Source: Candidatus Aminicenantes bacterium | Lineage (GTDB): Bacteria; Acidobacteriota; Aminicenantia; Aminicenantales; Saccharicenantaceae | Assembly: GCA_041303965.1 (NCBI GenBank) | Contig: JBFYOD010000079.1 | Location: forward strand, 10,224 to 74,223 | Reading direction: 5' to 3' | Length of the DNA stretch: 64,000 bases | Shown: positions 1,730 to 64,000 of the stretch, one piece after another | Layout of the letters: every line of letters begins with the position of its first letter | How positions within the stretch are numbered: position 1 is the first letter of the stretch | Made by a program: the position numbers and the translations under genes | The notes under the pieces: generated by a model | Database searches by the model: none | The model's input: the letters and a program-made list of their open reading frames with translations, nothing else | What the model was told of the DNA's origin: nothing

Positions 1730-1849
1730 GGCGCTTCAGCCTTTCGTGTGGAGGACGAAATCATAGCAGTTGGACGAAGGGCTTGTCAACGAACCTCGCC
1801 CCCGTTCAAAGGATTTTGTATAATGGCCGTCTAACCTGGTGAGAACGTG

Positions 1850-3030: not shown

Positions 3031-3530
3031 AAAAATGCGCGCCCATCACCGTCTTTGTTCTTATTCTAGCCCTAGTGACCTTGACCCCGGCCCAGGGATC
3101 CCAGCAGGGTGACCCGCAGGCCCGGATGAGGATCAGAGAGAACATTTCCAACCTGTATCTCCTCCGGCTCACTCGCGTCCTCGAGCTTACGGAGGAACAG
3201 ACGGCCAAGGTCTACCCCCTCCTGACCAATGTCGAAAAGGACAAGGCCGAGGTCCAGCGCCGGCTGGGTCAGGACCTCCGGGACCTCCGGGCGGAACTGG
3301 CCGAGCTCCGTCCCGACGACGCGAAAGTCCTTGAATTGGCCCTGCGGGTCAGGGAAGCCCGCCGGATCATAAGGCAAAAAGACGATGAGGTCGAGGGTGT
3401 CCTCGAAGGCGTCCTGACGCCCTGTCAGATGGGGAGATACCTCGTTTTCAGCGTCGATTTCCTCAGGGGCATAGGGGAGAAACTGGAGCGGGCCAGGGGC
3501 CTGAGGGCCCCGATAAAAAGAACCCCTTGA
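3027..3530 (+). CDS. periplasmic LTXXQ-motif protein (Spy/CpxP-like)
   Basis: Signal peptide MKKCAPITVFVLILALVTLTPAQG, LTEEQ motif, helical charged repeats. Third gene of the ECF sigma operon (ATGA overlap). Confidence 0.55.
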   Translation: MKKCAPITVFVLILALVTLTPAQGSQQGDPQARMRIRENISNLYLLRLTRVLELTEEQTAKVYPLLTNVEKDKAEVQRRLGQDLRDLRAELAELRPDDAKVLELALRVREARRIIRQKDDEVEGVLEGVLTPCQMGRYLVFSVDFLRGIGEKLERARGLRAPIKRTP

Positions 3531-3555
3531 CAAGAAATATGATTTCCTCTAGGAT
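3527..3555 (+). promoter_or_regulatory. candidate sigma-70 promoter (TTGACA-17-TAGGAT) upstream of the tRNA cluster
   Basis: Read directly: TTGACA 3527-3532, 17-nt spacer, TAGGAT 3550-3555, followed by an AT-rich region. Confidence 0.4.
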
Positions 3556-3705: not shown

Positions 3706-3778
3706 GCCAGCGTAGCTCAGCAGGTAGAGCGGCTGATTTGTAATCAGCGGGTCGGGGGTTCGAGTCCCTTCGCTGGCT
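3706..3778 (+). tRNA. tRNA-Thr (anticodon TGT)
   Basis: Acceptor GCCAGCG/CGCTGGC, anticodon arm GCTGA-TTTGTAA-TCAGC, T-loop GGTTCGAGTCC. No encoded CCA. Confidence 0.9.
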
Positions 3779-3877
3779 CAGAAGCGAGGAGCGAGCGCGT
3801 TCGCTGGCTGCGGATATCCCCGAAGAGGAGGGATCGCCGGCCGGCCGATCGAGGGCGACGAAAATGCATCTTAAGAT

Positions 3878-3960
3878 GGGCAGGTTCCAGAGTGGCCAAA
3901 TGGGACGGGCTGTAAACCCGTTGCGGAAACGCTTCGGAGGTTCGAATCCTTCCCTGCCCA
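3878..3960 (+). tRNA. tRNA-Tyr (anticodon GTA), long variable arm
   Basis: Acceptor GGGCAGG/CCTGCCC, anticodon loop CTGTAAA, long variable arm, T-loop GGTTCGAATCC. No encoded CCA. Confidence 0.9.
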
Positions 3961-3964
3961 CTTC

Positions 3965-4038
<74 letters not shown>

Positions 4039-4056
4039 CTTCTTCGAGGTCGTCGG

Positions 4057-4129
4057 GCCCAAGTAGCTCAGTTGGTAGAGCACGTCCTTGGTAAGGACGG
4101 GGTCACCAGTTCAATTCTGGTCTTGGGCT
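4057..4129 (+). tRNA. tRNA-Thr (anticodon GGT)
   Basis: Acceptor GCCCAAG/CTTGGGC, anticodon arm CGTCC-TTGGTAA-GGACG, T-loop AGTTCAATTCT. No encoded CCA. Confidence 0.9.
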
Positions 4130-4224
4130 TTTTCGCGTAGGCAACGTCGGGTCCGCGGGGACCGGGTTCGAGGCGAAAGCGGCGTGACGTCCGAAAGGCC
4201 GTCCGACGGAAGGAAAGGTTGAAC

Positions 4225-4374
4225 ATGCGAGAGATCATCACGCTCCAATGCGGCGAATGCAAGCGGCGGAACTATTCCTCGACGCGGAACAAGAAAAAGC
4301 AGACGGACAAGCTCGAAACGAACAAGTTCTGCCCCTCTTGCCGGAAGCACACGGCCCACAAGGAAGCCAAATAA
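4225..4374 (+). CDS. rpmG: 50S ribosomal protein L33 (zinc-ribbon form)
   Basis: Not in ORF track (49 aa). Manual translation [58 protein letters not shown] upstream. Confidence 0.9.
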
Positions 4375-4397
4375 GCGAGCGGCCATGACGCGACGAC

Positions 4398-4473
<76 letters not shown>

Positions 4474-4545
4474 TCTTCTCCCTGCAAGACGGGCGGCGGC
4501 GAGACCGGGAAGGTCCGGCCGCGCGAGTCGGACAAAGGACATGCC

Positions 4546-4758
4546 ATGAACGACAAGATTCGCTGGTACAAACGGTTCTGGAATTTTCTCAAGGACGTCA
4601 AGACGGAGCTCAAGAAGGTCACCTGGCCCTCCAGGAACGAGGTCACCAGCACGACGATCGTCGTCATCGCCGCCACGATCTTCTTCGGATTTTACCTGTT
4701 CTTCATGGACGTGATCTTCGCCTGGGTCATCGGCCAGATCAAAACGCTGTTCGGATAA
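4546..4758 (+). CDS. secE: preprotein translocase subunit SecE
   Basis: In-frame ATG at 4546 gives a 70-aa protein MNDKIRWYKRFWNFLKDVKTELKKVTWPSRNEV plus one TM helix. The longer ORF (4444) overlaps tRNA-Trp. Confidence 0.9.
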   Translation: MNDKIRWYKRFWNFLKDVKTELKKVTWPSRNEVTSTTIVVIAATIFFGFYLFFMDVIFAWVIGQIKTLFG

Positions 4759-4775
4759 ACGCAAGGAATCGGACG

Positions 4776-5306
4776 ATGGCAAAAAACTGGTTTGTCGTTC
4801 ACACCTACTCGGGCTTCGAGAAATTCGTCGCCGAATCGATCAAGCAGAAGGCGATCGAGCTCCATCTCGAGGACCAGGTCGGGAAGATCATCATCCCGAC
4901 CGAGGACGTCATCGAGATCCGTGGCGGGAAGAAGGTCGTCTCCACGAGGAGGTCTTACCCGGGGTACATCCTCGTCGAAATGGAGATGAACGACGAAAAC
5001 TGGCTGATGATCCGCCAGGTCCCCAAGGTGACGGGCTTCGTCGGTTCCGGCCGGACCCCCACCCCCCTGAGCAAAAAAGAGGTCGACCAGATCGTCGAGC
5101 ACATGGAGACGACCTCGGAAAAACCCAAGCCCAAGCACTCCTTCGAGAAGGGTGAGGCCGTCCGGATCATCGACGGCCCCTTCTTCAACTTCAGCGGGAT
5201 CGTCGAAGAGGTCAACCCCGAGCGGAGCACGCTCAAAGTCCTGGTCACCATCTTCGGCCGGTCCACGCCCGTGGAGCTCGAGTTCCTGCAGGTGGAAAAG
5301 CTTTAG
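4776..5306 (+). CDS. nusG: transcription termination/antitermination factor NusG
   Basis: [18 protein letters not shown]... NGN plus KOW domains. Internal ATG of the 4413 ORF. Follows secE. Confidence 0.95.
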
Positions 5307-15933: not shown

Positions 15934-15962
15934 TTGACAGGGAGGCCGAATTTTGTTATTAT
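15934..15962 (+). promoter_or_regulatory. sigma-70 promoter of the str operon (TTGACA-17-TATTAT)
   Basis: Read directly: TTGACA 15934-15939, 17-nt spacer, TATTAT 15957-15962. About 80 nt upstream of rpsL. Confidence 0.6.
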
Positions 15963-28950: not shown

Positions 28951-29393
28951 ACCTCAGCAACCTGAAACCGGCCCAAGGATCGAGGAAAGACCGTAAGAGA
29001 ATAGGGCGCGGCCCCGGCTCCGGCTGGGGCAAGACCGCCGGACGCGGCAGCAAGGGCCAGCTCCAGGGAAGCGGCTATTCCCGCAAGCGGGGTTTCGAGG
29101 GCGGCCAGATGCCTCTCACTCGGCGCATCCCCAAGCGCGGCTTCACCAACATCCACCGGATCGAAGCGACGGTCGTCAATCTGGACCGCCTGGCCAAGCT
29201 CCGGAAGGAAGAGATCCGGCCCAAGGACATGGCCGATCATGGCCTGATCAAAAAGGAATCCGAGCGGGTCAAGGTCCTCGGCAGGGGCGACCTCACTTCG
29301 GCCAAGACCATCCACGCCCACGAATTCTCTGAGTCGGCCGTGAAGAAGATCGAGGCCAAGGGCGGCCAGGCCGTCGTTATCGGGAAAGACTAA
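28947..29393 (+). CDS. rplO: 50S ribosomal protein L15
   Basis: 148 aa, GRGPGSGWGKTAGRGSKGQ motif. Confidence 0.96.
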   Translation: MNLSNLKPAQGSRKDRKRIGRGPGSGWGKTAGRGSKGQLQGSGYSRKRGFEGGQMPLTRRIPKRGFTNIHRIEATVVNLDRLAKLRKEEIRPKDMADHGLIKKESERVKVLGRGDLTSAKTIHAHEFSESAVKKIEAKGGQAVVIGKD

Positions 29394-34059: not shown

Positions 34060-35091
34060 ATGACAGAAATGAATTTTCAGAGGCCCAAGAACTTGGAGTG
34101 CGATTTCGACACGCTGACCGGGCAGTACGGGCGCTTCCAGGCCCAGCCGTTCGAGCGGGGATACGGAGTGACCGTGGGCAACGCCCTGCGGCGGATCCTC
34201 CTTTCGTCGGTCACCGGGGCCGCCATCACGGCCGTCCGCCTCCAAGGCGTTCTCCACGAGTTCTCGACCATCCCCGGGGTCGTGGAAGACGTCACCGACA
34301 TCATCCTCAACCTCAAGAGCATCCCCCTGAAGCTCCAGGGGAACGAGCCGAAACGGATGTCCCTCAAGAAGACAGGCCCCGTCCTGGTCAAGTCGTCGGA
34401 CATCTCCCGCGACAGCGACATCGAGATCCTCGACGAGAACCTTCCCATCGCCTCCCTCGACACCGACGGAACGCTCGAGGTCGAGATGGTCGTCAAGAAC
34501 GGGCGCGGCTACATCCCGGCCGACCAGAATTTCGACGAAGAGCAAAGCCTCGACTACATCCCGCTCGACTCCTCACACTCGCCCGTCCTCAAGGTCAACT
34601 ACAAGGTCGAGCCGGCCCGCGTCGGCAAGAGGATCGATTATGAAAGCCTGACCCTGGAGATCTGGACGACCGGGGCCGTCCGGCCCATGGACGCCCTGTC
34701 CCAGGCGGCCAAGATCATGCGCGACCACCTGGGCATCTTCCTGAACATCGTCGACGAGCCCCTCGAACGGGAAACGGCCACGTCGAAGAAGGAGATCCCC
34801 TACCTGCTCCAGGCCGATATCCTGGCCAAGACGATCGACCATCTGGAGCTCTCGGTCCGGTCCAACAACTGCCTCCGCTCGGCGGGCATCGAAAGGATCT
34901 ACGAGCTCGTGCAGAAGACCGAGGACGAACTCCTCAAGACGAAGAACTTCGGGCGCAAGTCCCTGGCCGAGATCAAGGAGACCCTGGTCAATTTGAACCT
35001 CGGGCTGAACCTCGAACTCCACCCCCGGCTCATCGAGCGGATCCAGGCGGACATCAAAGAAGGCACTCCCGAGAAGGAGATCGAGGCATGA
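34060..35091 (+). CDS. rpoA: DNA-directed RNA polymerase subunit alpha
   Basis: 343 aa, [11 protein letters not shown] motif and C-terminal [16 protein letters not shown] domain. Confidence 0.96.
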
Positions 35092-54208: not shown

Positions 54209-55378
54209 TCAGCGCTTCTTGACGAACTCGCTGACGGCCAGGTGGGCGATCTCCTTGAGCGGCCGCTTCGTCTTCCGGGCGACCTTCAGAAGGTCCTCGT
54301 ATTCCGGCTGGACGTTGACCGGCCGGCCGCCGAGCGCGGCGACCTTGATGCCGACGTTCTCCCCGCCGACCCGGACGTTCCGGAATTCCCGTTCGAGGAC
54401 GCGCCGGCCGACGGGGTAGTAGCGGACGCCGATCGACGTCGTTTCCCTGAAGACGGCCTCGATGAGAGCGTCCATCTTATCGGCGCCGGCGAGCAGGGTC
54501 AGCTTCGTGCCCAGGCGGTTCTTCTTCATGACCACGGGGGATAGGGTGGCGTCCAGGGCCCCCTCTTCGAAAGCCCTCTCCAGGAAGTGGGCCAGAAGCT
54601 GAGGCGAAGCGTCGTCCAGCGTCGCCTCGACGATGTAGACTTGTTTGGCCTCGTCGAAACTCCGGGCTTCGCCGTAATAAATCCTCAGGACATTCGGGAT
54701 CTCGGGGAACTCCTTCGTCCCCGCGCCACAGCCGATCCTCTTGTAGACGAGTTCTGGGAGCTTGGTGAACCGCTTGGCCAGGGTCGAAACTATGGCTGCC
54801 CCGGTCGGCGTAACGAGCTCGGACTCGACCCAGGCCGAGTAGATTGGCGCGCTTTTCAGGAGCTCGGCCACGGCCGGGGGGGGTACGGAAAGGACGCCGT
54901 GAGATGTCTTGACCCACCCGGAACCAACGTTGAGGGGCGAAGAATAAACGTCCTCGATGCCAAGTTCGTCGAGAAGGAACGCGGCTCCGACGACATCGAC
55001 AAGGGCGTCGTCGGCCCCGGCCTCGTGGAGATGGGCCTCCTTGAACCTGCGGCCGTGGACCTTGGCCTCGGCCTCGAAGAGCCGCTTGAAGATGGCGATG
55101 GCCCGGTCCTTGACGGAAGGGGAGAATCGGGCTCGGCGGATGATGCGCTCGACATCGGCGAAGGTCCTCTCGATGTGATCGTGGCCCTTGACCTCGACGT
55201 CGACCTTGACCGCGCCGAAACCGCCGCGGCGGACGCGCCGGACGGCTATCTCCACCGGCAGACGAAGTCCGGCCATCTTCTCCTTGAAGAGAGAGGCGTC
55301 GACACCCAGGTCGAGAAGAGCGCCGAGGATCATGTCGCCGCTCAATCCCGAAGAGCCGTCAAGATAGACGTAATTCAT
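54209..55378 (-). CDS. larC: LarC-family nickel insertion protein (DUF111)
   Basis: ATG 55378 (ATGA overlap with cobB): [47 protein letters not shown] motifs. Confidence 0.85.
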
Positions 55379-56127
55379 GGACTCATCCTTTCCCTCAGCT
55401 GCCTGTCCAGAACGGAAAGGATCTCTCCGGCCGTACCCTGGAAAAAGAAGTCGGCCTGCGCTGAGAGCGGCGTCGGTTCGAGGTTGACTTCGACGATCTT
55501 GGCACCTGCCCTGGCCGCCGCCAAAGGCAGCGAGGCGGCGGGATAAACGATGGCAGACGTCCCGATGACGAACATGACCTGACAAGCCTCGCTCAAACCG
55601 TAGGCCCGGTCGAGGACGGCGGGGTCAAGCGATTCCCCGAACCAGACGATGTGGGGCCGGAAGAGAGAGCCGCAGGCCGGGCAGATGGGAGGGATGCGCG
55701 GCAGGGGAGTCGTCCGGACCTCTTCGACCGTTCCTTCCCGGGTGCACCGCAGTTTCCAGATATTGCCGTGGAGCTCGACGACGTCGCTCGAGCCGGCCTT
55801 GGCATGGAGGCCGTCGACGTTCTGGGTGATGACGGCCATCTCTCCGAATAGGCTTTCCCAGCCGGCGATGATCCGGTGCCCGGCGTTCGGCTCGACGGGT
55901 GCGATGAGGCCGCGCCGCCAGTCATACCACTCCCAGACGAGTTTCGGATCGCGCTCGAAGGCCTCGGGCGTGGCTAAGGTTTCGGCCCTGTACTGCTTCC
56001 ATAATCCGTCCGCGCCCCGAAAGGTGGGAACGCCGGACTCGGCGGAGATCCCCGCGCCCGTGAGCACGGCGACGCGGCCGGCCCCGGCCAGGATTTCCAC
56101 GACCTCTGCGATCCGATGTTCGTTCAT
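55375..56127 (-). CDS. cobB: NAD-dependent protein deacylase, Sir2 family
   Basis: GAGISAESGVPTFRG, QNVDGLH, and Zn Cys pairs C..C / CPACG. Confidence 0.92.
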   Translation of the reverse strand: MNEHRIAEVVEILAGAGRVAVLTGAGISAESGVPTFRGADGLWKQYRAETLATPEAFERDPKLVWEWYDWRRGLIAPVEPNAGHRIIAGWESLFGEMAVITQNVDGLHAKAGSSDVVELHGNIWKLRCTREGTVEEVRTTPLPRIPPICPACGSLFRPHIVWFGESLDPAVLDRAYGLSEACQVMFVIGTSAIVYPAASLPLAAARAGAKIVEVNLEPTPLSAQADFFFQGTAGEILSVLDRQLRERMSP

Positions 56128-56254
56128 AGATGTCCGTTCTGCCCCTTAGAATATCGTTTTCCCCGGCAAAAAGCAAAAGCCTGGGAGGCCCCATTGACTG
56201 CATGACCCGTTCGTATAGGCCAAGGCTCGGCATTCATGCCGGGGAGTCAAGGGG

Positions 56255-56284
56255 TTGACGCGGCCTCGCCGAAAAAGGTATATC
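56255..56284 (+). promoter_or_regulatory. candidate sigma-70 promoter (TTGACG-18-TATATC) of mtnP
   Basis: Read directly. The predicted transcript would start at about the GAGGAGG SD. Confidence 0.4.
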
Positions 56285-56300
56285 AGTCCGAGGAGGATCC

Positions 56301-57185
56301 ATGGCCGGGACGAAAAGAGCAGAGAAACCACACGCCTCCATCGGCATCCTGGGCGGGACTGGGCTCTATGAGATCGACGGGATCAAGGATACCCGCGAAG
56401 TCCGCCTCCGAACGCCGTTCGGGGAGCCCTCCGACCCCTACGTCATCGGGACGCTCGAAGGCCGGCGGGTGGCCTTTCTAGCCAGGCACGGCAAGGGGCA
56501 TAGGCACCTTCCCGCCGAGGTCAACTACCGGGCCAACATCTTCGGTTTCAAGAAGTTAGGCGTCGAACGGATCATCTCCGTCAACTCCGTTGGCTCTCTC
56601 CGCGAAGAGATCCGGCCGCGCGACATCGTCCTCGCCGACCAGTTCTTCGACCGGACCCGCCGGCCCAATACATTCTTCGGACAGGGGATCGTCGCCCACG
56701 TCAGTTTCGGCCGGCCGGTCTGCCCGGAGCTGGTCCGGGTCCTCTATGAAACCGTGGTCGGGCTGGGGATGAGGGCGCACCGCGGCGGTACCTATATCTC
56801 CATCGACGGCCCGGCCTTCTCCAGCAAGGCCGAGTCGCTCGCCTACAGGTCGTGGGGAGCGGACGTCATCGGCATGACCAGCGCCACGGAGGCCCGGCTC
56901 TGCCGCGAGGCCGAGATCTGCTACGCCACGCTGAGCCTGGCCACGGACTACGACGTCTGGCACGAAACCGAGCAGCCGGTCACTGTCGAGCTCATCCTCC
57001 AGAACCTGTCGCACAACATCGGCAACGCCAAGGCCGTGATCAAGAAAGCGCTGGCGGCGCTCGGCGGCGTCCGCGACTGCGACTGCGGCTCGTCCCTGCG
57101 GAACACCATCGTGACCGACCCGGCCGCGATCCCGGCCGCGACGCGGCGGAAGCTGGGGATCCTCGTCGATAAATACCTGCGTTAG
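56301..57185 (+). CDS. mtnP: S-methyl-5'-thioadenosine phosphorylase
   Basis: 294 aa, IGILGGTGLY, FLARHG.GH and PNP_UDP family motifs. Confidence 0.9.
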   Translation: MAGTKRAEKPHASIGILGGTGLYEIDGIKDTREVRLRTPFGEPSDPYVIGTLEGRRVAFLARHGKGHRHLPAEVNYRANIFGFKKLGVERIISVNSVGSLREEIRPRDIVLADQFFDRTRRPNTFFGQGIVAHVSFGRPVCPELVRVLYETVVGLGMRAHRGGTYISIDGPAFSSKAESLAYRSWGADVIGMTSATEARLCREAEICYATLSLATDYDVWHETEQPVTVELILQNLSHNIGNAKAVIKKALAALGGVRDCDCGSSLRNTIVTDPAAIPAATRRKLGILVDKYLR

Positions 57186-57201
57186 GTTTGGGGGAATACT
57201 C

Positions 57202-58101
57202 ATGAGTCTCGTCATCGTCGGTTCGGTCGCCTTCGACACTATCCGGACGCCCTGGGGCTCGCGCGAGAGGATCGTCGGCGGATCGGGGACCTATTGTTCG
57301 CTCGCGGCGAGCTACTTCACCCGGCCCCGCGTCGTCGGCGTCGTCGGCCGGGACTTCCCGCGAAAAACCCTGGTCCTCCTCAAGTCCCGCGGCGTCGACC
57401 TCGAAGGCCTGAAGATCAAGGCGGGGAAGACTTTCCACTGGGAAGGGATGTATGAAGAGGACCCCAACCGGCGGACGACGGTCCGGACGGAGCTCAATGT
57501 CTTCGCCGATTTCCGCCCGGAGGTCCCAGCGCGCTACAGGGGCTCGCGCATCGTCTACCTGGCCAACCTCAACCCAGAGCACCACGACTTCGTCCTCGGC
57601 CAGTTCAAAAAGCCGGCCTTGGTCGCCATGGACACCATCCGGCTCTGGATCGACACGAAGAGGGAGACCCTCCTCAAGGAACTCGGCCGGATCGACGTCT
57701 TCTTCGCCAACGACGAGGAAGCCCGGCTCGTCACCGGGGAGATGAACCTGATCAAGGCCGGCAAGGCCCTCGTCGGGCTCGGCCCGTCGCTCGTCCTTTT
57801 GAAGAAGGGGGAACACGGCGCGCTCGTCTTCGGCCGCGATTTCGTCTTCGGCGTCCTGGCCCACCCGTGCGAGCACGTCGTCGACCCGACGGGAGCCGGC
57901 GACAGCTTCGCCGGGGGTTTCCTTGGTTACCTCGACAAGACGCCCGGGCTGGCCGGAAAGGACGTCCGTCGGGCGGCCGTCTACGGCAGCGTCATGGCCT
58001 CTTTCGCCATCGAGGATTTCGGGATCGGGCGTTTCCTGACCCTCGACCAAGGCCAGGTCGAGGGACGATTCAAGCTATTCCGCAAGTTGTCGATATTCTA
58101 G
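57202..58101 (+). CDS. PfkB-family carbohydrate/nucleoside kinase
   Basis: 299 aa, GGSGTY N-terminal motif and DPTGAGDSFAGGF signature. Confidence 0.85.
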   Translation: MSLVIVGSVAFDTIRTPWGSRERIVGGSGTYCSLAASYFTRPRVVGVVGRDFPRKTLVLLKSRGVDLEGLKIKAGKTFHWEGMYEEDPNRRTTVRTELNVFADFRPEVPARYRGSRIVYLANLNPEHHDFVLGQFKKPALVAMDTIRLWIDTKRETLLKELGRIDVFFANDEEARLVTGEMNLIKAGKALVGLGPSLVLLKKGEHGALVFGRDFVFGVLAHPCEHVVDPTGAGDSFAGGFLGYLDKTPGLAGKDVRRAAVYGSVMASFAIEDFGIGRFLTLDQGQVEGRFKLFRKLSIF

Positions 58102-58149
58102 AATGCGCCGGGCCCCCGGGATCGTCGAGGGCCGCTAGGGAGGAAAGAA

Positions 58150-59532
58150 ATGGCCGACATCAAGGTCCCCATGGAGCCCTTCCGCATCAAGGTCGTGGAG
58201 TCCATCCGCACGGTCTCCCGCCGGGAGCGCGAGGCCCTGCTCAGGCAATCCGGGTTCAACATCTTTGGCATCCCGGCCGAGAAGGTCACCATCGATCTCC
58301 TGACGGATTCCGGGACCTCGGCCATGAGCGACGACCAGTGGGCCGGCATCATGTCCGGGGACGAGTCCTACGCCGGGGCGCGAAATTGGTTCCATCTTGA
58401 AGATTCGGTCCGCTCGATCTTCGGCTTCCGCCATGTCATCCCGACCCACCAGGGGAGGGCGGCGGAAAGGATCCTCTTCGGTTCGGCCGTCAAGAAGGGG
58501 GACAGCGTCCCTAACAACATCCATTTCGATACGACCCGGGCCAACGTCGAAGTCCTCGGGGCCCGGGCCGAGAACCTGGTCGCCGCCGCGGCCTATGATC
58601 CCGATTCGCCCCACCCGTTCAAGGGTGACATGGACGTCGAAACGCTCAAAAAATTCATCGACAAGCGCGGCGTCGAAAGGATCCCGCTGGTCATGATGAC
58701 GGTCACCAACAACAGTGGCGGGGGACAGCCGGTCTCCCTGAAGAATATCAAGCAGGTGAGCGAGGTCTGCGGCCACCACGGCATCCCCTTCTTCTTCGAC
58801 GCCTGCCGCTTCGCCGAGAACGCCTTTTTCATCAAGAAGCGCGAGAAGGCCTACGCCAAGAAGAGCGTCGTCGAGATCGCCCAGGAGATGTTCTCCTATG
58901 CCGACGGCGCGACCATGAGCGGCAAGAAGGACGCACTGGTCAACATCGGCGGCTTCGTCACCCTCGATGACGACGGCCTGGCCGAAAAGATCAAGAACCT
59001 GCTCATCATCAGCGAAGGCTTCCCGACCTACGGCGGCCTGGCCGGCCGCGACCTGGAGGCCATGGCCCGGGGCCTCAAGGAAGGTCTCGACGAAGACTAC
59101 CTTGAGCACCGGACCGCCCAGGTCGCCTACCTCGGCGGCCTTCTCGACCAGGCCGGCGTGCCCGTCTTCAAGCCGTTCGGGGGCCACGCCATCTACCTCC
59201 TAGCCGACCGGTTCCTGCCCCATATCCCGCGGACGAAATACCCGGGTTGGGCCCTGACGGTCGCCCTTTACAGGGAGTTCGGCATCCGGGCGGTCGAGAT
59301 CGGCGGGGTGATGTTCGGGCAGAAGACGGGCAAGGGGAAACAGGAGGTCTATCCCGAGTTGGAAATGGTCCGCCTGGCCATCCCGCGGCGGGTCTACACA
59401 GCCTCACACCTGAAGTTCGTCGCCGAGTCCCTGATCGAGCTCCACAAGAACCGCGACAAGGTCAGGGGCCTGCGCATCGTCCGCGAATCACCGTTCCTGC
59501 GGCACTTCACGGCCCAGCTCGAGGAAATCTAG
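58150..59532 (+). CDS. tryptophanase / tyrosine phenol-lyase family beta-eliminating lyase (PLP)
   Basis: 460 aa colinear with TnaA/Tpl: IDLLTDSGTSAMSDDQWAG, PTHQGR, SGKKDALVNIGGF (PLP Lys), LRHFTAQLEEI. Substrate (Trp vs Tyr) not assignable by eye. Confidence 0.88.
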   Translation: MADIKVPMEPFRIKVVESIRTVSRREREALLRQSGFNIFGIPAEKVTIDLLTDSGTSAMSDDQWAGIMSGDESYAGARNWFHLEDSVRSIFGFRHVIPTHQGRAAERILFGSAVKKGDSVPNNIHFDTTRANVEVLGARAENLVAAAAYDPDSPHPFKGDMDVETLKKFIDKRGVERIPLVMMTVTNNSGGGQPVSLKNIKQVSEVCGHHGIPFFFDACRFAENAFFIKKREKAYAKKSVVEIAQEMFSYADGATMSGKKDALVNIGGFVTLDDDGLAEKIKNLLIISEGFPTYGGLAGRDLEAMARGLKEGLDEDYLEHRTAQVAYLGGLLDQAGVPVFKPFGGHAIYLLADRFLPHIPRTKYPGWALTVALYREFGIRAVEIGGVMFGQKTGKGKQEVYPELEMVRLAIPRRVYTASHLKFVAESLIELHKNRDKVRGLRIVRESPFLRHFTAQLEEI

Positions 59533-60260
59533 ATCTTGACCCGGGCCGGAGACTCGACGCGGAGGTCGAGACTGCCGATCCCGGCGTCGACCTCGACTTC
59601 GATAGTGACGGCGCTCTTTCCGTAAGCGTCGTTGACGTAGAAGCCGCCTTGCTTGGTCAAGCCGTGGGCATCGATCGAGCCGAGGCCGCCGTCCACCTTG
59701 ACCCGCACGCCGGCCTCGGAGGGCAGGTAGATCTTGCCGCTGCCGACGCCGCCGTCGATCTTGACATTGAAACTGTCCTGGTGTGGGCCTTGGAGGTCGA
59801 GGGTCATCTCGCCGACACCCATGTCGATCTCGACCCGCTGGAGCTTCAGGCCCCGGAGGTCGATGTCGCTTTGACCGGCGCCGAGGTCGATGTCGAGGTC
59901 GAGGGGAACGGAAGTGCTCAAATGGATGTCCCAGCGGTTACGGATCCGGCCGAAGGGGATGCTGTTACGGCGGGCGCGCCGGACCTCGAGGAGGCCCTTG
60001 TCGCCGAAGCGGCGATAATCGACGATCGGCCGGTCCCTTTCCCGGCTATATTCGAACGAAGCTTCGAGAAGCGCCTCCTGGTCGGCGCCGCGGACCCGGA
60101 GCTCGCCCGCATTCATGTGCAGGCCGACTTCGGCACGGGTCGCCCCTTGGAGCGCGACCATCTGAGTATCCTTCATGACGTCGCGAGGCTCGTCGCAAGC
60201 GGCCACGAGAGCCGCGACGGCGAGAATGATCAATCCTATTCTCATGCGGGAAGAATTCAT
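59529..60260 (-). CDS. lipoprotein with toast-rack (DUF2154/DUF4097-like) beta-solenoid domain
   Basis: Start at ATG 60260 (AGGAGG 7 nt upstream): MNSSRMRIGLIILAVAALVAAC lipobox. Repeated G.G..D..... strands. Confidence 0.6.
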   Translation of the reverse strand: MNSSRMRIGLIILAVAALVAACDEPRDVMKDTQMVALQGATRAEVGLHMNAGELRVRGADQEALLEASFEYSRERDRPIVDYRRFGDKGLLEVRRARRNSIPFGRIRNRWDIHLSTSVPLDLDIDLGAGQSDIDLRGLKLQRVEIDMGVGEMTLDLQGPHQDSFNVKIDGGVGSGKIYLPSEAGVRVKVDGGLGSIDAHGLTKQGGFYVNDAYGKSAVTIEVEVDAGIGSLDLRVESPARVKI

Positions 60261-60301
60261 CGATAGGCCTCCTGATAGTCGTTTCCGTCTCATCCCTATA
60301 T

Positions 60302-60331
60302 ACGAAACAAACGGGCCCGGAGTTCCCGGGC
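60302..60331 (-). terminator. rho-independent terminator after trpB2 (minus strand)
   Basis: Minus strand GCCCGG-GAACU-CCGGGC followed by CCGUUUGUUUCG. Confidence 0.55.
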
Positions 60332-60426
60332 TCAGGGTGTCCGGCTCTTTTTCGCCTGCACATCCATTCCCCGGGACGTCGCCTGCCGCCCTTTCCTGCC
60401 CGAGCGGTCATCTTATGGCCGGATCC

Positions 60427-61716
60427 TTAAAACGAGCCGGGCTTGTGTCCGTTGTAAGCGCTGATGTCGAGGAAGCCGTGCCCGGAAAGGTTGAAAAGGA
60501 TATTCGTTTCGCGTCCGGACTCCTTGGCCTTCAAAGCTTCTTCGATGGCCACGGCGATGGCGTGGGACGATTCCGGAGCAGGCAGGATCCCTTCCGTCTT
60601 CATGAACAGCACGGCCGCCTCGAAGACCGTCTTCTGATCGACGGCCCGGGCCTCGACGATGCCTGTCGCCGCGAGATGGCTGACGAGGGGCGCCATGCCG
60701 TGGTAGCGGAGCCCGCCGGCGTGGAGAGGCGGAGGGACGAATTCCATCCCCAGGGTGTACATGTACAGAAGAGGCGTCATCCCGACGCTGTCCCCGAAGT
60801 CGTAGCGCAGCTCGCCCCGGGTCAGGGAGGGGCAGGCGTCCGGCTCGACGGCGATGAAACGGGTGTTCCGGGCCCCGGCGAGGTTGTGACGGATGAAGGG
60901 AAAAGCCAGACCGGCGAAATTCGAGCCGCCGCCGACGCAGCCGATGATCGTGTCCGGGACCGCGTCCATCTCCTCCATCTGCTTTTCGGCCTCCAGCCCG
61001 ATGACCGTCTGGTGCATGAGAACGCTGTCCAGGACCGAGCCGAGGGCGTACTTGATGCCGGGGTCCTTGACGGTGATCTCCACGGCCTCCGAGATGGCGA
61101 TCCCCAGGCTGCCCGGATGCTCGGGGTCCTTTTCGAAGAACTTCCGGCCGGCCGCGGTCGTCGGGCTGGGGCTCTCGAGGACGGTGCCGCCGAACATCTC
61201 GATAAGGACGCGCCTCCCCGGTTTCTGGCGGAAACTCGACCGGACCATGAAGACCCTGGTTTCGATCCCGAAACGGGAGCCCGCATAGGCGAGCGCGGAG
61301 CCCCATTGGCCGGCCCCGGTCTCGGTCGCGAGAGTGGTCACGCCTTCCTCCGCGGCCAAGTAGGCCTGCATGATGGCCGTGTTCGTCTTATGACTGCCGA
61401 CCGGCCCGACGCCCTCGTACTTATAGAAGATGCGGGCCGGCGTGTCGAGGTGTTTTCTGAGGGCCGTGGCCTCGACGAGGGGCGTAGGCCGGAAGACCGA
61501 ATAGGCCTCGAGCACGGGACCGGGAATGGGGACTTCGCGCGCCGTCATCCCCTCCTGGCGGATGAAGCCTTTCGGGAAAATGACTTCGAGGTCCTCCGGC
61601 TTGATGGGTTCCTTCGTCCCCGGGTGAAGGGGCGGTTTGGGCGGGGATGGCAGGTCGGCCTTGATATTGTAAAAGGCCTTCGGCAGATAGTCCGTATTCC
61701 GAGACGCGCAGCGCAT
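60427..61716 (-). CDS. trpB2: TrpB2-type tryptophan synthase beta-subunit paralog (PLP)
   Basis: ATG 61716: MRCASRNTDYLPKAFYNIKADLPSPPKPPLHP (TrpB2-type N-terminus), GSHKTN PLP-lysine motif, GGGSNFAG. Confidence 0.88.
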   Translation of the reverse strand: MRCASRNTDYLPKAFYNIKADLPSPPKPPLHPGTKEPIKPEDLEVIFPKGFIRQEGMTAREVPIPGPVLEAYSVFRPTPLVEATALRKHLDTPARIFYKYEGVGPVGSHKTNTAIMQAYLAAEEGVTTLATETGAGQWGSALAYAGSRFGIETRVFMVRSSFRQKPGRRVLIEMFGGTVLESPSPTTAAGRKFFEKDPEHPGSLGIAISEAVEITVKDPGIKYALGSVLDSVLMHQTVIGLEAEKQMEEMDAVPDTIIGCVGGGSNFAGLAFPFIRHNLAGARNTRFIAVEPDACPSLTRGELRYDFGDSVGMTPLLYMYTLGMEFVPPPLHAGGLRYHGMAPLVSHLAATGIVEARAVDQKTVFEAAVLFMKTEGILPAPESSHAIAVAIEEALKAKESGRETNILFNLSGHGFLDISAYNGHKPGSF

Positions 61717-61845
61717 GATGGTCAATGTCCTTTCACGACGTCTTTCCCGTCGTGTCCGATGGGGCTCCGGCTCTGGGGACGCGCGCGATATCGGCAGGAT
61801 TCGCACACTCGTCCCCGGGAAGGGGAATGGACGGGGGGAACGGAC

Positions 61846-61935
61846 TTATCGGGCGGGGGAGGCCGCCCACCAGTTCCAGAGGAGAAGGGAGGACAGCGCT
61901 TCCTTCGGAATCAGGAAAACGTTCAGGCTGTCCAT
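61846..61935 (-). CDS. putative Trp-rich leader peptide (29 aa, WNWW)
   Basis: MDSLNVFLIPKEALSSLLLWNWWAASPAR. ATG lies 9 nt downstream of a consensus -10. 130 nt upstream of trpB2. Confidence 0.6.
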   Translation of the reverse strand: MDSLNVFLIPKEALSSLLLWNWWAASPAR

Positions 61936-61944
61936 AATGCGCGG

Positions 61945-61973
61945 ATTATAGGCAACGTCGCGGGGCATGTCAA
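61945..61973 (-). promoter_or_regulatory. perfect consensus sigma-70 promoter TTGACA-17-TATAAT (minus strand)
   Basis: Plus strand ATTATA 61945-61950 and TGTCAA 61968-61973, 17-nt spacer. A/T-rich (CATATTCAAAATAGG) stretch immediately upstream. Confidence 0.7.
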
Positions 61974-62059
61974 TACCTATTTTGAATATGATGGCTCGAC
62001 GCGAACCATTCCGTCGGCCGCCGAAGGACCTCACCTGATCGAGGCCCCCGGCCCGGGCT

Positions 62060-62548
62060 TCAGTAGCTTTTTTTTGCCGGGAGCGAGCGCCAGGCTTCGA
62101 AGAGCGCGAGACACTCCCGCCTCATGAACGCCGGGACGAGCCTGATCCGGCTCTTGCCTAGGGACTTCATTTTCTCGTTCGAGATGCGGAGCTCGTGGAA
62201 ACCGGACCGGGCTGCGTCGCGGATGCCCGTACCGTAATGGACGGCGCTGATCCGGGCCCAGTGGATGGCCCCGAAGCACATCGGGCAGGGCTCGGTCGTC
62301 GAATAGATGTCGCACCCCGAGAGGTCGAACGTGCCCAGCTTTTTCGAGGCCTTGCGGATGGCGTTGATCTCGGCGTGGCAGGTGGCGTCGTTCTCGAGGA
62401 CCGTGTTTCTGGCCGCGGCCAGGATCTTTCCGTCCTTGACGACGCATGCGCCGAACGGCCCGCCGTCCGGGCGAACGAGGTTCTTGCGGGCCTCGGAGAT
62501 GGCTTTCTTCATGAAACGGCTGTCGTGCGAGGTCTCGATTTTCTTCAT
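62060..62548 (-). CDS. guaD: GuaD-type guanine deaminase (cytidine/dCMP deaminase fold)
   Basis: ATG 62548: 162 aa with GGPFGACVVKDG, CHAEINAI, PCPMCFGAI, and C-terminal AWRSLPAKKSY resembling B. subtilis GuaD. Confidence 0.8.
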   Translation of the reverse strand: MKKIETSHDSRFMKKAISEARKNLVRPDGGPFGACVVKDGKILAAARNTVLENDATCHAEINAIRKASKKLGTFDLSGCDIYSTTEPCPMCFGAIHWARISAVHYGTGIRDAARSGFHELRISNEKMKSLGKSRIRLVPAFMRRECLALFEAWRSLPAKKSY

Positions 62549-62672
62549 TGTTGCTCCCGAACTCATTATACCCGGCCTCGGCGGGGCGGGAAAGCCCTCC
62601 GGCGGGCGCCTTCCGCGCCGCCGTCGGTTCCAGTTGACCACCGGGTCCGAAATTTGATTAAATGGTCCTGGC

Positions 62673-64000
62673 ATGAAGAGCGCCAGGATTTTCGTCTCGG
62701 CAGTGCTGATGTCCTGCCTGCTCTTCCTCTCTTCTTTCCCGGCAAACCGGGGTCCGCTCAGCCTGATCAGGATCCCCAAGGGCCCGGATCTCCCTTCCCG
62801 TGCCCTATCTCGTCTCCAGGTCGACGTTCGGCAGGAGCTCGAGAGCTGTCTGCTGGCCCTGGCCGACCGCGAGGACATCGCTCGCCTCCGCCGGAACGGC
62901 GTCCGTTTCTCGGTCCTGGCGCGCAACGCGGCGGAGGGAGATATCCTTGTCGTTCGGACCGATTCGCCCGGCGCCCTGGCCGCTCTCCGTTCGGCCGGCA
63001 AGGCCGTCGTCGTGGAGCAGGGGACAGCGGTTTTCTGGACGGAAACGGGCAGTCCCGCCGAGGCCGTCCCCGCAGGCCTGCCGCGAAAAGTGCTCTCGTC
63101 GCGGACCGTCCGGATGGGCTTTCGGCCGGCCGCAAGCGCCGCACGGCCCGCTTCTCGGGCCGTCGCCCAGGACCCGCTTATTGATATGATCGTCGACCTG
63201 GTGTCGACGCCGAACCTCAGCTCCGGCGTCCAATCCCTCCAGGACTTCCAGACGCGCTACGCCTCGACCTCGAACTGCGAGGCCTCCGGCCAATACATCT
63301 ACAACGCCTTTTCGGGCCTCGGTCTCGACGACGTCCGTTTCGAGCCGTTCACTTTCTCCGGATCCTACAGCTCGCGTAACGTCGTCGCCGAGAAAACGGG
63401 CGAAACCTATCCGGACGACATCGTCATCATTTGCGCCCACTACGACTCGACGTCGCCCCCCGCCTCGCGCCTGACCCTGGCCCCGGGGGCCGACGACAAC
63501 GCCAGCGGAACGGCGGCTGTCCTCGAGGCGGCCAGGGTCCTCGCCTCATATCCCCTCGACTTCACGGTCCGCTTCATCGCCTTTTCGGCGGAGGAGTGGG
63601 GGCTTTACGGGAGCCGGGCCTACGCCACCGCCGCGGGCCTGGCGGGGGAGAGGATCATCGGCGTCATCAACCTGGACATGATCGCCTTCGCCGACGCGAT
63701 GCCCGAGGACCTGCAGGTGATCGTCAATCCGGCTTCGGGATGGTTGGCCGACCGCTTCCTCGACGCCGCTTCATTGTACGGGCCTCTCGGCGCCACGAAG
63801 ACGATCGACGCCTCTTTCGTCTACTCCGACCACGCCCCGTTCTGGGACGGCGGCTATCCGGCCCTTCTGGCCATCGAGGACGACCCTCTCACCAACCCCT
63901 ATTATCACCAGACGACGGACACGCTCGACAAGCTCAATCTTGATTTCATTACGAGCGCCACTCGAGCTTCGCTGGGCCTCCTGGCCGAGCTGGCCCAGCC
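62673..64000 (+). CDS. M28-family aminopeptidase, secreted (C-terminus beyond window end)
   Basis: Open frame absent from ORF track (no stop in window). Manual translation MKSARIFVSAVLMSCLLFLSS..., HYDS, GADDNASGTAAVLE, SAEEWGLYGS, NLDMI, SDHAPF motifs. Confidence 0.85.
   Translation, partial: MKSARIFVSAVLMSCLLFLSSFPANRGPLSLIRIPKGPDLPSRALSRLQVDVRQELESCLLALADREDIARLRRNGVRFSVLARNAAEGDILVVRTDSPGALAALRSAGKAVVVEQGTAVFWTETGSPAEAVPAGLPRKVLSSRTVRMGFRPAASAARPASRAVAQDPLIDMIVDLVSTPNLSSGVQSLQDFQTRYASTSNCEASGQYIYNAFSGLGLDDVRFEPFTFSGSYSSRNVVAEKTGETYPDDIVIICAHYDSTSPPASRLTLAPGADDNASGTAAVLEAARVLASYPLDFTVRFIAFSAEEWGLYGSRAYATAAGLAGERIIGVINLDMIAFADAMPEDLQVIVNPASGWLADRFLDAASLYGPLGATKTIDASFVYSDHAPFWDGGYPALLAIEDDPLTNPYYHQTTDTLDKLNLDFITSATRASLGLLAELAQ

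Follow-up and report, generated by a model that had tools for sequence, protein, structure and literature searches.

In a stretch of 64,000 nucleotides (nt) from a Candidatus Aminicenantes bacterium (contig JBFYOD010000079.1), which as a whole we call the window, the gene for a stand-alone TrpB-like enzyme, trpB2, is preceded on the minus strand by a short and conserved leader, in which a consensus promoter is followed almost at once by an upstream open reading frame (uORF) that ends in a cluster of tryptophan (Trp) codons, the last of them fused to a GC-rich hairpin. The uORF very probably senses Trp through these codons, as judged from their number, frame and conservation. As to what the leader does with this signal, it may constitute an Aminicenantes ribosome-mediated attenuator of trpB2 that reports charged tRNA-Trp without an intrinsic terminator and has Rho as its output; we put this forward tentatively, at a little under an even chance. 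An earlier note on the same DNA had proposed a Trp-tRNA-sensing leader at this place, and the finding is real and conserved and that reading was right in outline, with Rho the best current guess as to the output and occlusion of the trpB2 Shine-Dalgarno (SD) sequence the next.

Anatomy and conservation of the trpB2 leader

The leader and the gene that follows it are made up of these elements:

61992-61974, minus strand: A/T-rich stretch, a possible UP element, with 57% A+T against 36% in the surrounding locus
61973-61968, minus strand: -35 element TTGACA, present as TTGACA in 41 of the 50 leaders found via the TrpB2 protein alone
61950-61945, minus strand: -10 element TATAAT, separated from the -35 element by 17 nt, a spacing found in 42 of the 50
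61940-61935, minus strand: predicted zone of transcription start, from promoter geometry; A61938 is the seventh nt after the -10 element
61935-61846, minus strand: leader uORF MDSLNVFLIPKEALSSLLLWNWWAASPAR, 29 codons, with its ATG at 61935, 9 nt after the -10 element
61933-61891, minus strand: hairpin P0, starting on the G of the uORF AUG (-16.4 kcal/mol, z -3.0)
61893-61879, minus strand: pyrimidine (CU) tract TCCTCCCTTCTCCTC, which immediately precedes the Trp codons and is proposed as the upstream half of a Rho utilisation (rut) site
61878-61867, minus strand: Trp-codon cluster W-N-W-W, with 61878-61876, 61872-61870 and 61869-61867 as the proposed sensing codons
61868-61863 and 61856-61851, minus strand: hairpin P1, GGGCGG/CCGCCC, with a loop of 6 nt; it overlaps the final Trp codon of the cluster
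61848-61846, minus strand: uORF stop codon TAA, 2 nt past P1
61845-61817, minus strand: C-rich tract just 3' of the uORF stop
61894-61817, minus strand: region of maximal C-over-G excess, 78 nt, the proposed rut site, taking in the CU tract, the Trp codons, P1 and the C-rich tract
61733-61728, minus strand: trpB2 SD AAAGGA (within GAAAGGA), 11 nt before the ATG at 61716
60427-61716, minus strand: trpB2, encoding a stand-alone TrpB-like pyridoxal phosphate enzyme of 429 amino acids that matches NF009057 and TIGR01415

When the minus strand was read again, we recovered the coordinates that the earlier note had given for a perfect TTGACA-17-TATAAT promoter, for a 29-codon uORF with three Trp codons in four positions and for a GGGCGG/CCGCCC hairpin just after the Trp run, and the A/T-rich stretch that it had placed upstream of the promoter was confirmed, as were the C-rich tract and the GAAAGGA before trpB2. 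Its naming of the downstream gene as trpB2 is also borne out, since the product scores above the cutoffs of both TrpB2 models (NF009057, 654 bits against a cutoff of 366; TIGR01415, 615 bits against 519) and far under that of the canonical TrpB model TIGR00263 (143 bits against 392). The leader promoter is the sole 12-of-12 promoter match within the 64-kb window, where the number expected from 100 shuffles is 0, likewise with one mismatch allowed; across the leader family, the mean A+T fraction upstream of the -35 element is 0.49 against 0.39. In all of the 50 leaders described below, the uORF start codon lies 5-10 nt after the -10 element, a distance too short to accommodate an SD, and from the promoter geometry the 5' untranslated region of the leader transcript would measure 0-5 nt and would carry no SD of its own.

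The 50 distinct leaders were gathered from genomes and metagenomes by TrpB2 homology alone and come from Aminicenantes at 66-95% identity, the best genome match to the TrpB2 of the window (92% identity) being likewise an Aminicenantes protein. Each of them combines a consensus promoter, an in-frame start at the short distance just given, one or more terminal Trp codons, P1 and a stop codon in or near P1, and a G-poor, C/U-rich spacer is part of the shared layout; read by eye, the same layout was present in 16 of 16 genome relatives at 66% TrpB2 identity or more. The earlier note had staked its reading beforehand on the conservation of the uORF and the Trp cluster in relatives, and both are conserved throughout these 50 leaders. 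Upstream of 60 TrpB2 genes of other phyla (Chloroflexota, Pseudomonadota, archaea and others, at 62% identity or less), no comparable leader was found, and the leader thus sampled appears to be specific to the Aminicenantes lineage. A scan of a genome collection with the pattern TGGTGGGCGG-N6-CCGCCCGA, which produced many chance matches in high-GC genomes, added at least about 30 further leaders; among the matches listed, every leader-like one lies upstream of trpB2, and the idea that the same leader also stands before other genes was rejected on these matches. The 64-kb window contains no second copy of the P1 pattern. Some of the statistics given here rest on 45 leaders (the SD modelling and the first C-over-G count) and others on 50.

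The uORF is 25-47 codons long in the 50 leaders, with a median of 29, and contains three Trp codons in 33 of them, two in 16 and one in 1; in 49 of 50, two or three Trp codons are placed inside the final 14 codons. The 29 nt 5' of the last Trp codon hold 87 further TGG triplets across the leaders, and all but 1 of these (86) share the frame of the uORF, as expected of selection on the codons and not of selection on a G-rich RNA segment. Since the N-terminal peptide sequence is entirely different from clade to clade, conservation concerns the frame, the hairpin and the group of Trp codons. The stop codon ends 6 nt past P1 in 34 leaders, whereas 8 have it within the loop; in a further 5 it ends 3 nt past P1, and in the remaining 3 it ends 15 nt past it. 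The distance from Trp to stop takes values of 2, 5, 6 or 9 codons, and the intervening residues differ.

Between the AUG and the Trp codons, the RNA folds better than shuffled controls throughout the family (mean z -1.47, with 42% of leaders below -1.64), and this despite a sequence that is not conserved. The hairpin formed there in the window, P0, shows covariation at one pair in the closest clade (AU in 16 sequences, GC in 7). P0 and the pyrimidine tract that precedes the Trp codons are both core parts of the element, and both had been missed by the earlier note.

For P1, the invariance seen in a first alignment was circular because its sequences had partly been picked by exact hairpin match; the pairs were counted again on the leaders found via the protein alone. 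In this set, none of the 50 leaders lacks any of the six pairs (300 of 300 cells), the outer pair being GC in 44 and GU in 6, and the inner pair GC in 47 and CG in the 3 leaders L210, L211 and L216 (GGGCGC/GCGCCC), a compensatory change that probably arose once. About one third of the sequences can form a seventh pair, and the loop is 3 nt shorter in L202 and L241. Much of the invariance is explained by the coding function of the 5' arm, four of whose six positions are fixed by Trp and Ala codons. The 3' arm is preserved also in those leaders whose stop codon sits in the loop and in which the arm is non-coding, so that the constraint is on the RNA (or DNA) and not on the peptide. The register UGG-GCG-G is fixed as well, and known ribosome footprints indicate that, whenever the A site is occupied by one or the other of the last two Trp codons, the ribosome would hold the 5' arm of P1 in the mRNA channel.

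Candidate output of the leader and rival explanations

Classical terminator/antiterminator attenuation, which the earlier note had already judged not to fit, is ruled out by several observations: (i) no terminator-like site is present on the minus strand between 61973 and 61716; (ii) no U tract follows any hairpin, either in the window or in the relatives; (iii) no conserved and mutually exclusive antiterminator/terminator pairings, and no conserved pairing past the stop codon, are found across the clades; and (iv) the leader has no Rfam match at gathering score, Trp_leader included. When the leader was compared with Rfam permissively (E up to 10) and the entire window at gathering thresholds, the only matches were tRNAs and, for the leader, a chance match to ar14 (E 5.4). 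For the wider genome, terminator-like hairpins followed by U tracts numbered 49 in the 49 kb scanned (1-40000 and 55000-64000), against about 47 expected, the numbers found and shuffled for the individual segments being 17 and 21.2, 22 and 18.6, and 10 and 6.8, a hint that this genome does not rely chiefly on canonical intrinsic termination.

Rho recognises RNA composition. The spacer between the uORF and trpB2 ranges from 57 to 161 nt in the leader family, and downstream of the uORF stop there is no sequence or pairing common to all clades, composition only. In the window, the excess of C over G in the 78-nt region amounts to 0.29, a value reached by 0.04% of 78-nt segments in the 64 kb. Compared with the local background, the excess falls in the top 5% for 42 of 45 leaders in a first count and for 90% of the leaders found via the protein alone, percentiles which are not p-values, since a sliding-window maximum is being compared with background and the leaders share ancestry. 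It holds at genome G+C contents of 34-71%, and its centre lies at the Trp codons and P1. Both the tract that precedes the Trp codons and the 40 nt that follow P1 are pyrimidine-rich and G-poor against their own loci, with median empirical p values of 0.02 and 0.04, respectively. NusG is encoded in the window. With its C-over-G excess found family-wide and standing in the top 0.04% of the window, a Rho route through the C-rich tract, one of two alternatives that the earlier note had named, is the one we favour, and Rho may be the effector of the leader, at a little under an even chance.

In the mechanism that we propose, a strong sigma-70-type promoter would fire constitutively and the transcript would start at the uORF AUG or a few nt from it, so that a single ribosome would load on the nascent 5' AUG and translate the leader peptide in leaderless mode. 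P0 and P1 would fold away the G-containing segments, and the two G-poor pyrimidine tracts that remain single-stranded, one 5' of the Trp codons and the other 3' of the stop, would form a bipartite rut site; P1 may also pause RNA polymerase until the ribosome arrives, keeping transcription and leaderless translation in step. Two outcomes would then be expected: (i) when Trp is plentiful, the ribosome would read through WNWW, melt P1, terminate 2 nt beyond it and leave, and the bare C-rich RNA would recruit Rho, transcription ending before trpB2 or early within it; (ii) when Trp is scarce, the ribosome would stall with a Trp codon in its A site, so that it would sit amid the rut site and cover the upstream tract and the first arm of P1, and Rho loading would be blocked, the polymerase would continue, trpB2 would be made and indole would be converted to Trp.

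Beyond the limit that we have placed on the C-over-G percentiles, several points weigh against this mechanism. P1 is the most conserved element of the leader, yet the mechanism gives it merely an auxiliary role, and its folding energy (-12.7 kcal/mol, z -0.7) is by itself ordinary for its base composition. A ribosome stalled at the Trp codons would leave the 3' C-rich tract exposed, so that shielding would be partial. A motif scan for rho gave no match in the limited sequence examined, which says little. Finally, in folding models, masking of the Trp codons frees the SD in about one quarter of the relatives, which leads to the next explanation.

Translational attenuation, the second alternative named in the earlier note, supposes that, as in ermC or the mycobacterial polycysteine leaders, the pyrimidine tract or the C-rich tract pairs with the trpB2 SD and that the stalled ribosome, by covering this anti-SD, sets the SD free; we consider it unlikely. 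To examine it, we used minimum free energy folding, duplex energies and partition functions with ribosome masks. The probability that the SD is unpaired was computed for the free RNA, under a 28-nt ribosome mask that places the last Trp codon in the A site, and under control masks of the same size at other positions. Averaged over the family, it is 0.31 for the free RNA, 0.35 under the Trp mask and 0.35 under the control masks (Wilcoxon p 0.58 and 0.52), and in the window it drops on stalling from 0.48 to 0.30, the wrong direction; SD occlusion was rejected for the window on these models and is unsupported family-wide. The duplex of tract and SD is weak in the window (-8.6 kcal/mol, p 0.11), tract and SD show no covariation, and in L012-L014 the SD is paired with the spacer with or without the mask. 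On the other hand, 30 of 45 leaders have their best complementarity to the SD in the pyrimidine tract, at 11-28 nt upstream of the first Trp codon; the complementarity has an empirical p below 0.05 in 47% of the leaders and extends to a perfect 9-nt anti-SD in L008, and for about 11 of the 45 (L002, L170, L177, L193 and L156 among them) no mask, or hardly any, frees the SD better than one on the Trp codons; SD occlusion also has experimental precedent in mycobacteria (bioRxiv 10.1101/834739). From these folding models, SD unmasking may contribute in some lineages but is not what the family has in common.

A further explanation, which we find decidedly doubtful, is that P1 itself acts as a factor-assisted transcription stop or long pause without a U tract, and that the stalled ribosome prevents P1 from forming and so permits read-through. 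This would give the most conserved element, held in fixed register with the last Trp codon, a principal part, and it is in keeping with canonical terminators not being enriched and with gene ends that, here and in L004, carry GC hairpins with poor or no U tracts. However, no U tract follows P1 in any clade and its stem has just six pairs; because the stop codon lies beyond or inside the hairpin, a translating ribosome would melt P1 at high Trp too, leaving discrimination to timing alone; and the conserved G-poor spacer would go unexplained. The same spacer, together with P1 and the position of the stop codon, is unaccounted for if the output were mRNA stability, with stalling at a distance of some 60 nt from the 5' end blocking 5'-end-dependent decay and trpB2 mRNA accumulating in Trp starvation. 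Stabilisation of mRNA by a stalled ribosome is known for ermC leaders, and both the stall site near the 5' end of a leaderless transcript and the family-wide propensity for a 5' hairpin would suit it, but we hold this explanation to be very improbable.

Sensing of free Trp in the manner of TnaC, whereby a W-rich nascent peptide would arrest the ribosome at the stop codon and Trp would induce trpB2 alongside a tryptophanase-like gene, can draw on the tryptophanase-family gene that is syntenic and convergent with trpB2, and on the facts that TnaC needs a Trp residue and that the tna operon uses Rho (PMC12360218). An arrest peptide was nevertheless set aside, and seems to us scarcely credible, because the Trp-to-stop distance and the residues in between vary as described above and no W-x3-D-x7-P pattern (W12-D16-P24 of TnaC) is present; moreover, two to three tandem Trp codons suit a codon-starvation sensor, and induction by Trp of a Trp-forming enzyme makes little physiological sense. 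Just as remote is a protein-binding palindrome, GGGCGG-N6-CCGCCC serving as a DNA operator roadblock or a regulator-bound RNA hairpin with the uORF secondary, for which its nearly invariant arms, variable centre and near-constant spacing look operator-like, but which is disfavoured by its location about 70-90 nt downstream of the start, by the in-frame TGG count of 86 to 1, the start codon at a fixed distance from the -10 element and the stop at the hairpin, all of which point to translation, by the GC-to-CG change that alters both half-sites in one clade and keeps the pairing, by the shorter loop of L202 and L241, and by the W and A codons that explain four of the six 5'-arm positions.

Relation to known leader peptides

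The trpB2 leader resembles the TrpL attenuators of Proteobacteria (Rfam Trp_leader) and of Corynebacterium and Streptomyces (PMC1262725), in which a short leader ORF with tandem Trp codons likewise precedes a Trp-biosynthetic gene. In both, the Trp codons stand in or at the 5' arm of a hairpin with the stop codon close by, as in the 1:2 pause hairpin, and the presumed logic, from starvation through stalling to expression, would be the same. The 1:2 hairpin of E. coli trpL keeps transcription and translation in step. The differences are that the trpB2 leader has no U-tract terminator, no conserved antiterminator and no Rfam match, that its leader peptide lacks an SD and would be read from the 5' end, and that the target is a stand-alone trpB2 and not a trp operon.

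Similar to the mode of translation predicted for the trpB2 leader is that of the polycysteine leaderless small ORFs of mycobacteria, the 'Cys ribulon' (Canestrari et al., bioRxiv 10.1101/834739), where a leaderless small ORF is the first cistron, the cognate codons are near its 3' end, no intrinsic terminator is involved, the stalled ribosome is the signal and the system is lineage-specific. There, the Cys codons pair with the SD region and the output is translational (bioRxiv 10.1101/834739), whereas in the trpB2 leader SD unmasking is unsupported and a conserved GC hairpin and rut-like composition are present. Among Deinococcus deserti leaderless leader peptides, including that of trpEGD with a transcription start at -1 (PMC4007540), the peptides are similarly rich in the relevant amino acid and the 5' end of the transcript is at or next to the AUG, as predicted for the trpB2 leader; these leaders differ in having proposed terminator/antiterminator structures, and none is tied to trpB2.

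For the Rho output, the nearest parallels are tnaC-tnaAB, speFL-speF and cruR-bfrG, in which stalled ribosomes shield rut sites (reviewed in PMC12360218). As proposed for the trpB2 leader, a ribosome arrested on the uORF is held in the review to shield a C-rich rut site that its release exposes, and in cruR the rut site is inside the uORF (PMC12360218). These systems differ in that they sense a small molecule through the nascent peptide and arrest at or near the stop codon, while we propose a shortage of charged tRNA-Trp acting at the Trp codons; tna in addition has the opposite sign, as Trp would repress in the trpB2 leader. An architectural analogy, and only that, can be drawn with phage lambda. 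The lambda tR1 region has a rutA-boxB-rutB arrangement. Work by Vieu and Rahmouni in 2004, as cited in PMC12360218, reportedly describes this arrangement. Two pyrimidine-rich half-sites are there likewise split by a small stable hairpin, but the hairpins are unrelated in sequence and no N-like protein is implied.

Our literature search found no described trpB2 leader and no account of Trp regulation in Aminicenantes. The leader would offer the first regulatory evidence on the role of stand-alone TrpB2, since a sensor of charged tRNA-Trp before trpB2 argues that TrpB2 supplies Trp in vivo by indole salvage. It would also add a well-sampled attenuator, terminator-less, leaderless and responsive to Trp, to a short list, with more than 50 natural variants available for mutant design; because it has a perfect sigma-70 consensus promoter and the element spans about 260 nt, the Rho and SD models are directly testable in E. 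coli or in vitro. In poorly studied phyla, leader-peptide regulation of this kind is missed by screens based on terminators or on Rfam.

Gene neighbourhood and clade-specific features

Further features of the locus, which lie outside the conserved core, are as follows:

61816-61775, minus strand: P2, a long bulged hairpin GGGGAC...GUCCCC (-25.2 kcal/mol, z -3.05)
61754-61734, minus strand: P3, a 7-bp hairpin CACGACG/CGUCGUG that abuts the trpB2 SD (-11.3 kcal/mol, z -4.5)
60331-60305, minus strand: terminator-like hairpin with a U-rich tail, 3' of trpB2

The earlier note had described P2 and P3 as successive parts of the leader; both hairpins are present as described, but they occur in one clade only and are clade-specific accessories, not part of the conserved core. 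P2 is confined to the closest clade, where its distal part is variable, and is missing from short-spacer relatives. P3 is missing from the short-spacer clades, and in the closest clade 74% of its cells are paired, against 9-41% in slid registers, with three double changes. These pairs were counted by hand, RNAalifold having given poor predictions because of variable insertions, both for the entire close-clade leader and for the P3 segment.

The gap of 11 nt between the SD and the ATG of trpB2, found in the closest clade, is unusually long, and distant relatives have AAGGAGG at the usual spacing. Weak initiation of trpB2 from so distant an SD would raise the sensitivity of the transcript to Rho. 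In the sub-clade of L012-L014 and L228, a segment of 9-11 nt across the uORF stop (CCUGAAAAUC) can pair without mismatch with codons 4-7 of trpB2 (GAUUUUCAGG), giving a helix that encloses the SD and the start codon and whose register moves between relatives; on the strength of this complementarity, the helix may be a lineage-specific translational layer.

In the window, trpB2 is flanked by a deaminase gene upstream and by a LiaG/LiaF-like gene downstream (59529-60293, minus strand), and no further trp genes were found among its neighbours or among the window ORFs sampled. The 3' end of the LiaG/LiaF-like gene is overlapped by 4 nt by that of a tryptophanase-family gene (58150-59532, plus strand; NF009709, 668 bits), which is convergent with trpB2. 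The convergent pairing of trpB2 with such a tnaA-like gene is retained in many relatives, distant ones included (L001-L004, L009, L011, L174), and in L004 only 44 nt, containing a GC palindrome, separate the pair. This pairing suggests a regulated cycle of indole and Trp, with antisense interference as a possibility, and in an uncultured phylum it points to such a cycle being under control. Carried to its full extent, our proposal would make the leader an undescribed class of attenuator, with a ribosome stalled on a leaderless transcript amid a bipartite Rho site split by a pause hairpin that is joined to the sensing codons, the first counterpart of tnaC to be repressed by Trp, and the regulatory half of a conserved TrpB2/tryptophanase indole cycle, in which trpB2 would be on only when Trp is scarce and read-through would run antisense into the convergent tnaA-like gene; taken as a whole, this picture is somewhat unlikely.

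Just beyond the trpB2 promoter, a terminator-like hairpin followed by T8 lies at 62041-62075 on the plus strand. The sole plus-strand gene within 2.5 kb upstream of it is the tryptophanase-like gene, and on the minus strand its A run corresponds to two Lys codons of the deaminase gene; the site may be coincidental, as it is not conserved in L006.

At a distance from trpB2, positions 3706-5306 of the window (plus strand) hold a cluster of tRNA genes for Thr, Tyr, Gly and Thr, followed by tRNA-Trp (anticodon CCA, 4398-4473) and then nusG, so that the tRNA proposed to be sensed is encoded in the same window as the leader. The genes rpoB/C and the ribosomal protein operons come farther along (SecY at 29393, RpoA at 34060). 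Near-consensus promoters of the sigma-70 type, with TTGACA and 10-11 of 12 matches, are found at 15934-15962 (plus strand), 1760-1789 (minus strand) and 3527-3555 (plus strand), two of the three with an extended TG; these sites precede the tRNA cluster or lie among the ribosomal genes, so that the organism uses promoters of this type for highly expressed genes. Lastly, in one sub-clade of relatives (L012, L013, L014, L015 and L228), short repeats, both tandem and inverted, are present 100-250 nt upstream of the leader promoter (CGTAATTCGTAATTCG, TTAGACGTTAGACG and the complements of these).

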